A DNA stretch of 64,000 bases from Eledone cirrhosa (lineage: Eukaryota): assembly GCA_964016885.1 (NCBI GenBank), contig OZ024743.1, positions 230,144,001 through 230,208,000 on the forward strand. The letters are read 5' to 3'. The position numbers were made by a program, and so were the translations under genes. Shown in pieces: positions 4,072 through 60,902 of the stretch (position 1 is the stretch's first letter; each line of letters opens with the position of its first letter). The notes beneath the pieces were generated by a model. It worked only from the letters and a program-made list of their open reading frames with translations. It had not been told where the DNA came from and ran no database searches.

Positions 4072-4263
4072 ATGTATGTACGTATATATATTCTGCGGCC
4101 TCGATATGAATACCCCCTCCGCCGCCGTGGTATTTTCTTCGTGGTTATAAGAGGCTTGGCTCTGTTTCTCGACCGTTATATCGCGTGACTATCTCCCCCT
4201 CCGCCTTTTGGGATTCTTTCTCACGTCGTGTAGACGCGTTCTTGAGAATAGTAAAATGAGGTA

Positions 4264-4353
4264 TCCTCTTGATAAGTCGGCAGACCTCGCAGGGACTCTA
4301 TATCTTTATGATATATTGTTTTTGTTTATGCCACGAAACTACGTAGTCGAGGA
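4264..4353 (+). ncRNA. Type I hammerhead ribozyme, U3-A8 core variant
   Basis: tcctc-TTGATAA-gtcggca[..]tgccac-GAAA-ctacgtag-TC-gagga. Stem I tcctc/gagga; stem III ACTACGTAGT is palindromic; predicted cleavage after C4348. Confidence 0.85.
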
Positions 4354-4858
4354 ATTTAGGAGCAGTTTAGGTATGATACATTTTATTACTAATTATATCT
4401 AAATGTTTCTTCTCTCTTCATAATGTATTTTTAACTCTGATACTGGTTCAGTCTGGTTCAACTGAATTGGTCTGTCCCGGTCATTCATTGAGCAACATCG
4501 GTGAAGTTGGCACCCTTAACTCACAGTTGGGTGCGGATGCATTCATGTATATATGTGTGTGTCCGCATGTATCTGTGTGTTTCTAAATATATTGTTAATA
4601 ACTCCCTCTGGTCGAGCAATCTTTGAAGTGTGGGGACAACTGGAAAGCTTCCATTACTCATACTTCTAGCCTTTTTCACCACCTCTTCTGCGGCCTCGAT
4701 ATGAATACCCCCTCCGCCTCCGTGGTATTTTCTTCGTGGTTATAAGAGGCTTGGCTCTGTTTCTCGACCGTTATATCGCGTGACTATCTCCCCCTCCGCC
4801 TTTTGGGATTCTTTCTCACGTCGTGTAGACGCGTTCTTGAGACTAGTAAAATGAGGTA

Positions 4859-4948
4859 TCCTCTTGATAAGTCGGCAGACCTCGCAGGGACTCTATATCT
4901 TTATGATATATTGTTTTTGTTTATGCCACGAAACTACGTAGTCGAGGA
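4859..4948 (+). ncRNA. Type I hammerhead ribozyme, second tandem copy
   Basis: Identical to 4264-4353; predicted cleavage after C4943. Confidence 0.85.
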
Positions 4949-56382: not shown

Positions 56383-57307
56383 ACGTGGGAGAGGGAAGTC
56401 ACAGCGTGTTTAAGGGCAGTGAACCATTGGCCTCTGAGGGACGAGCTGCTAGAAAGTGCAGCCCAAAACCACTCAGAGAAGTGGTGCTCAACCAAACAGA
56501 GAAAGAGGAGAAAGACTGTTATAAGGAGCGAAATATCACGATACATTCACGGAGCCATAGACTCTCGCCGTATATATATATATATATATATATATATATA
56601 TATATATATATATATATACATATAAAATAAAGTTAAATAAAAAGTCAAATGTTTAAAATGTATCTTCGTTTATTACTGCAATATATATTTCAGTGACAGC
56701 CATCTTTGGCTGTGCCCTCTTCAGGCAGTCCGAATTAGTGTGGTATAGACAAGTACATATGTTGTTGAGGTGTATGATTTTGTCAATACTCTGATATACC
56801 CAGTTCCTGGTTGGGTTGTTATTTCACTGAGGAACTGGAATCATATGATTCTGGAATCATATGATTCCAGTTCCTCAGTGAAATAACAACCCAACCAGGA
56901 ACTGGGTATATCAGAGTATTGACAAAATCATACACCTCAACAACATATGTACTTGTCTATACCACACTTATTCGGACAGCCTGAAGAGGGCACAGCCAAA
57001 GATGGCTGTCACTGAAATATATATTGCAGTAATAAACGAAGATAAATTTTAAACACTTGACTTTTTATTTAACTTTAATTTATATATATATATATATATA
57101 TATATATATATATATATATATATATATATATATATACGGCGAGAGTCGTATGTATCATGATATTTCGCTCCTTATAACAGTCTTTCTCCTCTCTCTCTAT
57201 CTTTGGTTGAGCACACTTCTCTGAGTGGGTTTGGGCTGCCCTTTCTAGCAGCTCAGAGGCCACTGGTTCACTGCCCTTAAACACGCTGTGACTTCTCTCT
57301 CCCACGT
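56383..57307. repeat. Nested palindrome: diverged outer arms (56383-56572 / 57135-57307) enclosing a near-perfect ~455-bp inner palindrome (56625-57078)
   Basis: Inner centre ctggaatcatatgattctggaatcatatgattccag; each level is bounded by (TA)n. Confidence 0.9.
56675..56729 (-). ncRNA. Canonical hammerhead; mirror copy 56976-57030 (+)
   Basis: actgc-CTGAAGA-gggcacagcc aaagat ggctgtcact-GAAA-tatata-TT-gcagt-aataaa. Confidence 0.85.
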
Positions 57308-60300
57308 GTATTTGGACGGCCGCTTTAAAAATTCTCTTAGTATTGATGAACCTAGGTTATTTCATTTCCGTCAACAACTTACTGGCGAAACAGATCACTT
57401 TGGATTTGTACGTGTGTTATATAGTTATAGAGGTATTTATTTACGCCTCAATTTATATTTTTATTCATCGTGTCTATATTCTGCCTTTGTTATATATTCT
57501 GCCGTTATAGATTCCATACACTGGTGGTTTTTCCCTGTTTTATTGATGGCGCACTGTATCTCTCTCTAGTGTGTTACCTTTTCAACACATTGTATATATA
57601 TATATATATATATATATATGTATTTGTCGCTATATATATATATAGCGACAAATACAGATCACATTTACCTCTGAGTAGACAATCAACACAAAATGAAACG
57701 CTCCGGAATATTTTCATTTATGCATTTTTTAAAATAAAAATATGAAAATACATTTATATTTTGTACAGACAGTATGTCTGCTGCTGAAATATTGTTTTGA
57801 GCATATCATAGACGAATTTAATAATCACAGTTGATAGAGATATAAGGCGTCAGTGGTTGTGAGAAGTAGAGGAATAAAGAGCTGGCGTTGATATTAAAAA
57901 AAAGTATGTTTTTGTTGTTAAAGAATGAAAGTCAAACGCATGGAAATACCCTGAAATTCGTAGAATATGATTTAGAACAATACACATAGAGACACGTACA
58001 CAACCATATGTATGTATATATGTATGCTTTTTTGCATGTAAAGCCTTTCATCGCTTAAAAAAGATTCAAGCACATGCATCGCTTGAATATGTGAGACTTT
58101 ATTGCGATGGATGGCATTTCTCGCAGGACTAAAAAACCACGTTCATGTTTAAGTATCAAGTGATAGCATTACTTGAAATCGAGTTCCAGCCATCGCTATG
58201 TATGTATAGTGAAGGTATGTGACTTAGTGGTTACGGTGTTAAACTGACGATCATATGGTTGTACATTCGATTTCTCCATCATTCTATTCCTCATTGCTTT
58301 AGTCCAGTTCGGTGACAAAAATTGGATGTACATGTAATTCAAAATGCCAGACTTGTCATATTAAATTTCAGTATCGCACTGAATTTCCTTAAGTACTACA
58401 TTAAAGATAGACATATCAATGCAATGTTGAGACGCTTGCGCATTTAATTTCATTAGCAGTTTGTTCTTTAAAATTGAGGCATGAACTTTGCTAAATGTAC
58501 CCAAAGTCCAGGTAATGGTGGTAAACAAAGTGACAGGTTATGAATGTCATCCGGAAATCAGAATACAAAGTGCCGAGATAACTCTCTAGATTGGGTGCTT
58601 TTTTTCATCGTAGAGTTGACCTCGGTCTGAGTCTATGTAGACAACAATGTTTGTTTATTTGATCTGTATCCTCTGTTGTTGCTAACTTGTATTGTATTAC
58701 CATTCTCTTCTCCACACCAACATTTCTTTATGTCACCATTATTCAGTATAAACTCTGCATGACTGTGTGTCTGTGTGTGTGTGATTGTATGTGTGTATGA
58801 GTGTGTGTGTATGTGTGTGTGAGTGTGTGTGTGAGTGCGTGTGTATGTGTGTGTTTGTGTATATATATATATATATATATGTGTGTGCATGGTATTGTTT
58901 ATGAGTGTCTGAATGTTTACGATGTATCACACCTCACTATAACATTATATTATCATATTGGCAGGGAATACATCATGTTGTTGTAACCCTTCATTTCATT
59001 CCCTCTCTGTCCCTCTTTCTTGTTGCTTCTCTGTCCCTCTTTCTTGCTTCCTCTCTCTCCCGCTTGCTTGCTCCCTCTCTCTTGCTCCTTCTCTCTCATT
59101 CTCTCTCCCTTCCCCATTAATCCCCACCTCTCTCTCTCTCGCTATGTATATTTTCATGTCTTAAAATCTCATTGTCTAAAAGGGAATTTATCTTAATAAT
59201 ACGGTGATGATTTAATGATTATATAATGAACAATACTGCGATGATTGCACTAACTAAAGAGGGCAGATCAAATTGTGCTCATGTATTTCATTTGAGGAAT
59301 TTACGTTCTTCCTTTTCATTTTCAAAAGAATAAATATTAGTTATATAAAGGTTTGAATTCAAACGCATCAATACAACACTTTGACAATCATATACCACCA
59401 CGGAGTTCATTGTTGTGCTTACAATATATATCTAATAATTATTCCAAACAACATACACAAATAATTATTATTATGATCATGTAATATGTTAGTGTTTAAA
59501 TAGGTTTAATAGCTATTTTCGTAAATATGCTGGAAAAATGAATTAATATCATAGCAGCACATTTGACAAATGGTTCCACATTTTCTCGTGTTCTAAATAA
59601 AGGATATTCATTTTCTCTACTATATACTACGTAAGGTCAAAATGTTCCGATACTCTTCTCCAGCATGCCCCATGATACGATTCCTTTGCAATGGAACTGT
59701 GGACCGAAACTAGGAGTTTTAAAGAAATACAAGTATGTTATGAAATCCACATTGAATCACATGCAGATTAAATACATATGTAAGATTCCACTTACAATTA
59801 ACAATTGACAGGATGACTTGCAATATCTTTAATAACATCTAAAAATAATGATAATGACATATAATAAAACATTTGTTGTACTTTGATGGTTGGTCAAAGC
59901 AATTCTCCGTGACTTGTGTTTGCTTCAATGGCCGCCGTCCAAATGACAACAAAAATGAAGTAGCAAGATTTAACTTGGAATTGATAAGTTGAATGAAAAA
60001 TTGTTTGAACGAAACAAAATGAAGTTGCCACTCGTACATGGACGCACGTACGCACACACGCACGCACACATACACACGTACACGCACACACACACACTCA
60101 TACACACACACATATATTCATACGTGCGTGTGTGTAATGATAGAAAAAAGCGTACATTTGAAGATTTCAATGTAAACATTAGGCTTTTGAATTAGACGCC
60201 TTTGTTATAAAAAGAATGAACTGTAATCCCTATGAACTATTCCTACGTAAACAGAAAATATAAAAGATTATTCATATGTATTTAAGATGTTATTTCTTCC

Positions 60301-60809
60301 TACACTGTAGTGGTACATCCATCTCCTAAAATGTATATATATATATATATATATATATATATATATATATATATATATATATATATATATATACATACAA
60401 GTGGAATCCAGCCGGATCAATTGTAGACAGATGCTTCTGACGCCAGAAAGTGTTCTTGTGGACACTTCCCCATGAGCCACGCAGAAATAAGTGAGAGAAG
60501 AATATATATATATATATATATGAAAAGATTCAAAACCCCCAACGGGTGAGCTCCGGCCGTTTCGACAGCTAGATCCGAAATAAAGGACCCCGACGTCTAA
60601 GCTCCGACTGTTTCGGCAGCTAGATTCGAAATAAGCTTGGTTCGTGGTCCTGAATCTGTTCATATTACCCACTCTACTACCCCAAAGATCGAGTATTGTG
60701 ATGCGTTATGGTCCAGCTGGTATCTTACCACACCCTCTCTGATATATATATATCAAATTACAAAATATGAAGAAATAATGGACAAAAATATACTTATTTT
60801 TTCTTCAAA

Positions 60810-60902
60810 GTCTCGACCGCAATTTCGCTGAGCCTTGTACAACAAATTCTGCACTATAAAAGTGCATTATCGCTGTGAGTTTGATACGGCTTATCAAGAG
60901 AC
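60810..60902 (-). ncRNA. Hammerhead, U3-A8 variant, with a large stem II insert
   Basis: Minus strand: gtctc-TTGATAA-gc[~60 nt incl. tgcac tttta tagtgca]gc-GAAA-ttgcgg-TC-gagac. Confidence 0.7.

Follow-up and report, generated by a model that had tools for sequence, protein, structure and literature searches.

The window analysed here is a stretch of 64,000 nucleotides (nt) from the 3.0-Gb genome assembly of Eledone cirrhosa (contig OZ024743.1, positions 230,144,001 to 230,208,000 of the forward strand), with 35% GC and 94 tandem-repeat rows that are chiefly (TA)n. It contains a series of type I hammerhead ribozyme motifs, and the overall best explanation for them, which the sequence makes very probable, is that they lie near the 3' ends of insertions into (TA)n made either by Penelope-like elements (PLEs) or by non-coding retrozymes. 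The PLEs are recognized by open reading frames (ORFs) for a reverse transcriptase (RT) and a GIY-YIG endonuclease, and by pseudo-long terminal repeats (pLTRs). The main features are listed below; elsewhere motif positions refer to C3 of the core unless a range is given.

4091-5185 (+): tandem of 1.84 non-coding retrozyme units, each 595 nt; TA-rich flanks, 3' end at internal site B (see below)
4264-4353 (+): intact hammerhead, U3-A8 core, stem III ACTACGTAGT, GUC site
4859-4948 (+): second intact hammerhead of the tandem, completing the only close same-strand intact pair in the window
5833-9877 (-): GC-rich canonical PLE, frameshifted RT pieces at 7661-9709, 3' end in (TA)n
5923-5954 (-): minimal hammerhead, ACGT stem III, stem I of only 2 bp, likewise in 11 of 11 other copies, with GUC
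10161-10196 (+): hammerhead, U3-A8, 3-bp stem I, ACCGGT, in a short element between TA tracts
10349-14745 (-): decayed full-length PLE of Neptune/Nematis type, pLTR-ORF-pLTR, ORF pieces at 10864-14277; additional pLTR pieces reach 15705
10549-10590 (-): hammerhead in the 3' pLTR, non-palindromic stem III AGAACT
14685-14726 (-): hammerhead in the 5' pLTR, 2-bp proximal stem I, likewise in most relatives
15820-15881 (-): intact hammerhead of the most widespread family; stem II covaries
24861-24900 (+): decayed hammerhead, stem I unpaired, ACCCGT
33918-34259 (unstranded): inverted two-arm insertion; motif 33967-34024 (-) intact, with G15.1-U16.1; 34154-34211 (+) in the other arm has lost the 5' strand of stem I
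36612-36731 (unstranded): inverted pair of the 55495 family; the core at 36670 (-) passes the descriptor
39706-39743 (+): decayed hammerhead (A3), inverted decayed partner at 39425
39898-42184 (unstranded): inverted two-arm insertion, arms with motifs 39934-39982 (-) and 42100-42148 (+), both C4; weak Hydra-like endonuclease trace at 40493-40621 (E 0.001)
42357-47456 (+): Hydra-clade PLE, inverted arm 42357-42952, endonuclease ORF 42942-43463, internal (TA)n in the 3' untranslated region (UTR), 3' pLTR; interrupted by 44018-46325
42412-42553 (-): intact hammerhead, 105-nt stem II, ACGATCGT, in the inverted arm of the Hydra PLE
47127-47268 (+): intact hammerhead of the same sequence, in the direct arm of the Hydra PLE
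44018-46325 (unstranded): Neptune/Nematis-type PLE insertion, inverted arms, ORF piece 44625-45900; motifs 44184-44228 (-) and 46115-46159 (+), both G5A
55493-55545 (+): hammerhead with 4-bp hairpin stem III, immediately before (TA)n
55600-56076 (unstranded): older relative of the 595-nt family, inverted arms; motif 55913-56005 (+) decayed
56571-57134 (unstranded): fold-back insertion between TA tracts; motif 56675-56729 (-) passes the descriptor, 56976-57030 (+) has a broken stem I
60810-60902 (-): decayed copy of a large family (1743 candidates), most listed relatives of which have ACTGCAGT and a GCCG/CGGC stem II

Hammerhead motifs in the window

The strict type I descriptor combined a CUGANGA, UUGANAA or UUGANGA core, stem II of at most 150 nt, a GAAR box, stem III self-complementary or of at least 4 bp, a UH site and a stem I no shorter than 3 bp. 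The window yields 10 matches to it, compared with 0.7 ± 0.8 (maximum 3) in 40 local dinucleotide shuffles made in 300-nt blocks, and a broader descriptor finds 9 against 0.37 ± 0.60 in 30 shuffles; an earlier, tighter version gave one match in the window and was too strict, and a repeat search was dominated by microsatellites. Specificity erodes once core mismatches are allowed (13 matches against 4.8 in shuffles with one, 32 against 15.8 with two), so that decayed sites are credible through their family relatives, found by BLAST against 1 Mb of the genome and by searches of the species' own genome, and not through the descriptor.

The sequence-only reading that preceded this work had placed hammerheads at 22 sites, and a motif is found at each of them, at an overall density well above that of dinucleotide-shuffled sequence. 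The strict descriptor is passed by nine (4269, 4864, 10164, 15875, 34020, 42544, 47136, 55500 and 56724) and the broader one by 10586 (the 10549 motif), which brings those passing a descriptor to 10 of 22. The type I order, the boxes, three stems and the UH site are present in 10 of the 22 and in 36670 (-), which was absent from the list and is the tenth strict motif of the window. The assumption that all sites are intact fails for 12 decayed or variant copies, which have changed cores (A3 at 39710, C4 at 39977 and 42105, A5 at 44223 and 46120) or short or broken stems (5952, 14722, 24866, 34158, 55918, 56981 and 60897). They still resemble family relatives, except for 39710, for which the 1-Mb sample and own-genome searches gave no relative outside the window and only the decayed partner within it. 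Four copies overlooked earlier (36670, 15526, 37122 and 39425) are all on the minus strand. Intact motifs number about one per 6-8 kb, so the proposed one ribozyme per 3 kb is too high.

Stem III had been described as mostly self-complementary, and it is so in 16 of the 22 sites (with G-U permitted in two), the exceptions being 10549/14685, 44184/46115, 24866 and 55495. The statement that many motifs are followed by AATAAA and (TA)n is likewise accurate: 18 of the 22 sites have (TA)6 no more than 350 nt 3' of the core, and 15 have AATAAA within 150 nt, counts that are unaffected by offsets of 31 and 4 nt in the coordinates taken for two sites. We distinguish about 13 DNA families, near the dozen first supposed, but to call them all unrelated was an overstatement, since the 55913 element is 74% like the 4264/4859 elements and those that carry 10549 and 44184/46115 are 68% similar across 1.1 kb. 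A single match of the broad descriptor at 20311 probably arose by chance.

Conservation of the ribozyme fold

Stem II covaries in a family of 19 sequences (alignment A1) that was pulled by the motifs flanking the stem, with no pairing requirement on the stem itself. Both sides have changed in 9 of 10 pairs, and 93.5% of cells are paired against 38-56% in slid controls. None of 500 shuffles scored as high; kinship can inflate this test, and the slid control agrees with it. In stem III of the same alignment an A-U pair has become G-C in 6 of 19 sequences. U3 goes with A8 in 13 of 14 cases from the genome sample introduced below, though the descriptor allowed U3-G8. A C opposite C or U recurs at the third or fourth position of stem II across otherwise different families and is invariant in 19 of 19 sequences of the alignment; this mismatch is possibly a tertiary contact.

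Genome-wide abundance and association with (TA)n

The genome sample comprised 79 distant 10-kb stretches (789 kb), chosen at round coordinates of large contigs rather than by formal random draw, and was searched with stem I set at 4 bp. It contains 76 motifs against 3-5 in shuffles, and the window contains 8 at the same setting. Bootstrapping over stretches, with the shuffle mean subtracted, gives a median of 2.7×10^5 motifs genome-wide (1.9-3.7×10^5). Seven of the 76 matches come from one array and three are artefacts of an unrelated satellite in L061. The broader descriptor finds 97 against 3-6 in shuffles, and the 200 kb beside the window, searched with a 3-bp stem I, contain 44 matches, many of them from two arrays. 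The 76 matches form 25 clusters, 13 of them with two or more members; 156 broad matches form 41, of which 15 occur at more than one locus.

The window is typical of the whole genome, with one motif per 8 kb against one per 10 kb in the sample at the same settings, and not the special dense archive that the sequence-only reading had seen in it; a few hundred thousand hammerhead copies are likely genome-wide. Its proposal of a large radiation of minimal type I hammerheads, belonging to PLEs and non-autonomous derivatives, that targets (TA)n is supported. Enrichment beside (TA)n is marked: of 71 scorable matches, 58 have (TA)6 within 250 nt on the 3' side of the cut site and 29 on its 5' side, with a background of 14%, and AATAAA occurs within 40 nt in 20 of 76 (background 4%). 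Seen from the tracts, 71 of 512 TA clusters have an intact hammerhead pointing in. In the freely readable literature, with Repbase outside it, we found neither a cephalopod hammerhead census nor a report of this scale; supplementary count tables of PMC4209133, PMC7229834 and bioRxiv 10.64898/2026.07.22.740005 may hold cephalopod counts.

Penelope-like carriers

ORFs of PLEs, placed by tblastn, adjoin five hammerhead families, with the motifs sense to the ORFs. An RT with a C-terminal GIY-YIG domain is combined with hammerhead-bearing pLTRs at 10349-14745, 42357-47456 and 44018-46325, and the element at 5833-9877 shows RT only.

By its sequence features the element at 42357-47456 is classed as a Hydra-clade PLE. 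Its natural full-length copies (L130 and L133) have hammerhead motifs and encode RRIRWRAY, HSDKTG (DKT) and SCNCRNKANC (CxCX5C), with one Cys between the GIY and YIG boxes and no CCHH. Young candidates of the family number at least 847-1044; its hammerheads stand about 4.1 kb apart in L133, and its tail measures about 150-220 nt. The TA tract at 43845-44021/46382-46502 is traversed by other Hydra copies (L007, L008, L013, L022 and L028); it therefore belongs to the element, and the 44018-46325 PLE inserted there. A 113-nt duplication at the Hydra stop codon (43439-43668) is also seen in other Hydra copies.

ORFs 44625 and 10984 have the Neptune/Nematis-type CX2-5CxxC linker (as CX4CX2C) and two GIY-YIG cysteines, which fits both clades; the best protein match of ORF 44625 is a predicted protein of Octopus vulgaris (66%). 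The PLE family of 5833-9877 is young, with 1308 candidates, the best 40 of them at 98-100%. This element has 54-59% GC in a 35% GC genome, and its named protein matches are from corals, anemones and a sea cucumber at 55-60%; judged by these features, it may have arrived horizontally.

Retrozymes and the two-site insertion pattern

The 595-nt retrozyme at 4091-5185 has no ORF of 120 amino acids or more and displays the traits of non-LTR (long terminal repeat) retrozymes, with dispersed, non-coding tandem units of one hammerhead each. It has at least 501 candidates, the best 40 of which are about 100% identical. A query covering unit nt 110-330, unable to select either end, retrieved 30 loci that represent 23 insertions. 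In every one of the 23 the direct end lies at unit nt 334-338 (site A) or 502-509 (site B) and passes into (TA)n. Each of the 16 two-armed insertions with the outer end in view combines one A with one B (10 A/B, 6 B/A), for which the chance is 0.5^16 if the arms are independent and the sites equally likely. Loose TA ends at the same sites occur in three public contig sets (X1 with A and B, X4 and X6 with B), which attest presence and TA ends only, X1 being possibly the source sample. The Hydra copies, judged by eye, follow the same two-site pattern with one exception (L132, see below). No report of a one-of-each end rule or of a TA-carrying retrozyme was found in the literature defined above.

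Several independent insertions of the 595-nt family (L177, L194, L199 and L203) have an arm that ends at about unit nt 1-3 (window 4091), 257 nt before the cut site; unit nt 1-3 is a possible transcription start. A second retrozyme, of 474-520 nt (L047:1-3730, L080:3900-7620 and L207-L236), forms tandem and inverted arrays at the seven loci inspected, and its L080 array alternates two unit variants, as from a dimeric template. A third, of 310 nt, lies about 45 kb outside the window (L085:5300-10000 and L086:1-700), with 11 tandem units in one orientation and 6 in the opposite one.

Inverted arms are also found on a small scale. In the 55495 family (36612-36731, L075, L106 and L107) the inversion point lies repeatedly within about 10 nt of the hammerhead core, giving tiny fold-backs. 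At 56383-57307 the inverted symmetry extends about 160 nt past each TA tract, into sequence that has no other match in the 1-Mb sample, and these extensions are likely an inverted duplication of host flank at insertion.

Other features of the window

Among the 15 window ORFs, Pfam gave names for two only and for none of the PLE ORF pieces: a long interspersed nuclear element (LINE) RT at 448-2105 (+; PF00078, E 4e-31, match 448-1494) and a weak mariner helix-turn-helix at 29897-30316 (-). A probable LINE 3' fragment lies at 61258-61674 (-). An abundant short interspersed repeat, probably the octopus SINE, occurs at 30658-30865, 32707-32915, 33517-33850, 38858-39044 and 54443-54730, and one copy stands just before a Hydra hammerhead in L130. 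There is also a 119-nt perfect inverted repeat around a TA tract (18929-19261) and a 21-nt minisatellite (32233-32631).

Proposed insertion mechanism and alternative explanations

The motifs occur in direct, tandem or inverted arms, whose ends lie at two fixed internal sites 3' of the hammerhead. We propose that the PLE endonuclease nicks both strands of (TA)n and that each nick would prime reverse transcription from one of a pair of sites in a shared RNA template; it is from the occurrence of one of each site per two-armed insertion that we infer priming of both nicked strands on one RNA. Copying would head towards the 5' end and usually halt early, so that a hammerhead 60-300 nt upstream would be deposited most often, and the two cDNAs would join into inverted arms. 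The non-coding retrozymes likely borrow the PLE enzyme. Published work suggests that the ribozymes may cleave as dimers via the palindromic stem III, probably with protein assistance, and dimer cleavage would cut multimeric transcripts into units or circles. Most motifs listed as pairs, such as 44184/46115, are opposite-strand arms of one insertion and hence form no dimer within one transcript. For each single insertion cleavage is probably dispensable.

Several observations weigh against this scheme. For eight or so families the window holds no ORF, and their link to PLEs is based on anatomy; they may be truncated pLTRs or additional retrozymes. In one Hydra insertion (L132) the far site is used by both arms. 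The G-C pair next to the core (G10.1-C11.1) is present in only 10 of the 76 sample motifs (U-U in 25, A-U in 16, C-A in 10), although an extra base after A9 may mask some such pairs, and U-U, C-A or A-U at this position may lower activity in many families. The dimer fold lies 10-20 kcal/mol below two monomer hammerhead folds in 10 of 10 cases, but it beats two unconstrained monomer folds in only 6 of 10. No 5'-end peak stands at the cleavage site among 320 segments of the genome sample: 8 start at 0 to +9, 9 at -10 to -1, 111 ran past -200, and the 90 at +10 to +13 are an artefact of one query touching a SINE. Both arms of 44018-46325 carry G5A and 13 of 15 relatives have an intact core, so that a dead ribozyme was probably copied, gene conversion between the arms being the alternative. 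The C4 family (39977/42105) has an intact core in none of eight relatives, yet it has spread. The idea that insertions start at the cleavage site was rejected for want of the 5'-end peak; L130 starts 102 nt past the cut.

The G5A and C4 copies and the flat distribution of 5' ends at H17 favour the most serious alternative, in which the fold is kept as a protein-binding or RT-positioning structure, or hitch-hikes on PLE ends, and cleavage plays a minor part in spread; insertion by a PLE in vitro was unchanged by hammerhead mutants (PMC11167929). We consider it unlikely, as the core, cleavage triplet and palindromic stem III persist in at least 13 multi-member clusters with different flanks, and the relatives of the G5A copy are mostly intact. 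In addition, of 30 Hydra ORF-start loci three start close to the cut, at about +2, +3 and +10, a weak hint that RT pausing explains too. Since the core is kept across many families, cleavage likely matters at another step, for example in making unit-length or circular RNA.

PLE-type elements might also be the main source of the genome's (TA)n and not mere users of it. At 7 of 7 array loci each unit of the 474-520-nt retrozyme contains (TA)8-32, with a near-constant TA length within an array, and the Hydra 3' UTR holds the (TA)n in which another PLE inserted. However, only 8 of the 512 TA clusters in the 789 kb are internal to this retrozyme and none to the Hydra element (two patterns counted), and Hydra elements are described as targeting existing (TA)n (PMC8557442). 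The suggestion that these elements shape the TA microsatellites thus holds locally, where two families carry (TA)n internally, whereas their share of the bulk is small and a role as its main source is improbable.

More improbable still is the growth of tandem arrays by local unequal crossover from single pLTR remnants, in place of insertion as multimers. Such a model is discussed in bioRxiv 10.64898/2026.07.22.740005, and local duplication would also give the uniform TA length within an array; the arrays, however, are scattered, share 99-100% identity, have tandem units in each arm of an inversion and finish in TA at the two fixed sites. An origin of the motifs by chance in AT-rich, repeat-rich DNA can be dismissed: relaxed descriptors do match shuffles often, three sample matches stem from the L061 satellite, and no hammerhead family is among the 150 of 231 Rfam matches listed for the window (microsatellite-driven microRNA and small nucleolar RNA hits below gathering score), but the excess over shuffles in window and sample, the family structure and the covariation refute chance.

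Comparison with known systems

Minimal hammerheads with U3-A8, palindromes and low dimer activity were described in PLE pLTRs, with about 9,000 in Xenopus (PMC4209133). The motifs reported here share their type I order, short palindromic stem III, short stem I and U3-A8, as well as the many heterogeneous families per genome, mostly single truncated copies, and opposite-strand pairs 100-700 bp apart. They differ in stem III palindromes of 6-10 nt, in stem II of up to 105-116 nt and in the scarcity of G10.1-C11.1. The estimated 2-4×10^5 motifs compare with about 9,000 in Xenopus tropicalis and 3,300 in Schistosoma, counts obtained with different descriptors. A 2026 O. vulgaris repeat paper (PMC13282606) does not mention ribozymes in its main text.

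For Hydra-clade PLEs, PMC8557442 gives RWR/RWK, DKT, the CxCX5C linker, absence of CCHH, a hammerhead and a (TA)n target, all shared by the element here, and lists a hammerhead and a (TA)n preference for Hydra-1_Obim of Octopus bimaculoides. Our element has a different hammerhead from Hydra-1_Obim and about 4.1 kb (L133) instead of 2.5 kb between hammerheads; set against the published Hydra PLEs, its internal (TA)n, its tail and its number of young candidates are distinctive. Neptune/Nematis PLEs, which have the CX2-5CxxC linker and CCHH (PMC8557442), share linker, GIY-YIG cysteines, pLTR-ORF-pLTR structure and inverted arms with the elements of ORFs 44625 and 10984. In the Neptune/Nematis-type elements here stem III is not palindromic.

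The axolotl genome is roughly tenfold larger than this one. Animal non-LTR retrozymes number about 5,000 in mussel and up to 120,000 in axolotl (PMC7229834). As in the published descriptions (PMC7229834; bioRxiv 10.64898/2026.07.22.740005), those found here consist of non-coding units in tandem, each with a single type I hammerhead, and are scattered alongside PLEs. What sets them apart is a unit length of 310, 474-520 or 595 nt, a minimal hammerhead, inverted arms of PLE type, two fixed ends in (TA)n and, in one family, (TA)n as cargo.

The closest mechanistic parallel is the PAc Poseidon element in vitro, which nicks both strands, starts reverse transcription internally at two sites whose spacing equals the tail, and does not need its hammerhead for insertion (PMC11167929). 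The two fixed sites here match its two RT start sites and tail, with the addition that one insertion uses both. The tail is 30-40 nt there and about 170 nt here; no strand difference in start site was noted for PAc Poseidon, and the main text holds no one-of-each rule per insertion of the kind seen here. The role of PLE hammerheads, the origin of tails and inverted arms, and the mobilisation of retrozymes by PLEs are treated as open where PMC8557442, PMC11167929 and PMC7229834 touch on them.

Conclusions

Already known are the link between hammerheads, PLEs and TA, hammerheads of the minimal dimer type, the targeting of TA and a Hydra element with a hammerhead in an octopus. The phenomenon is real and of a known kind, and what gives it value is its scale, together with the junction rules found in the young families. 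Taken together, these could mean that this genome has the highest density of self-cleaving motifs known (about one per 10 kb), that retrozyme multimers are inserted by a dimeric PLE enzyme which, with its two active sites, primes at two fixed positions of one RNA, and that TA-carrying elements lay targets for each other in a feed-forward loop behind the octopus microsatellite load. We put this combined reading forward tentatively, as possible rather than probable. If it is true, priming by a PLE dimer at two fixed sites would account for both PLE tails and inverted arms by a single rule. Because insertions of 98-100% identity number in the thousands in this genome, the jumping mechanism would be testable by junction counting, and truncated PLE ends may account for the short fold-back repeats that octopus annotations show between TA tracts.

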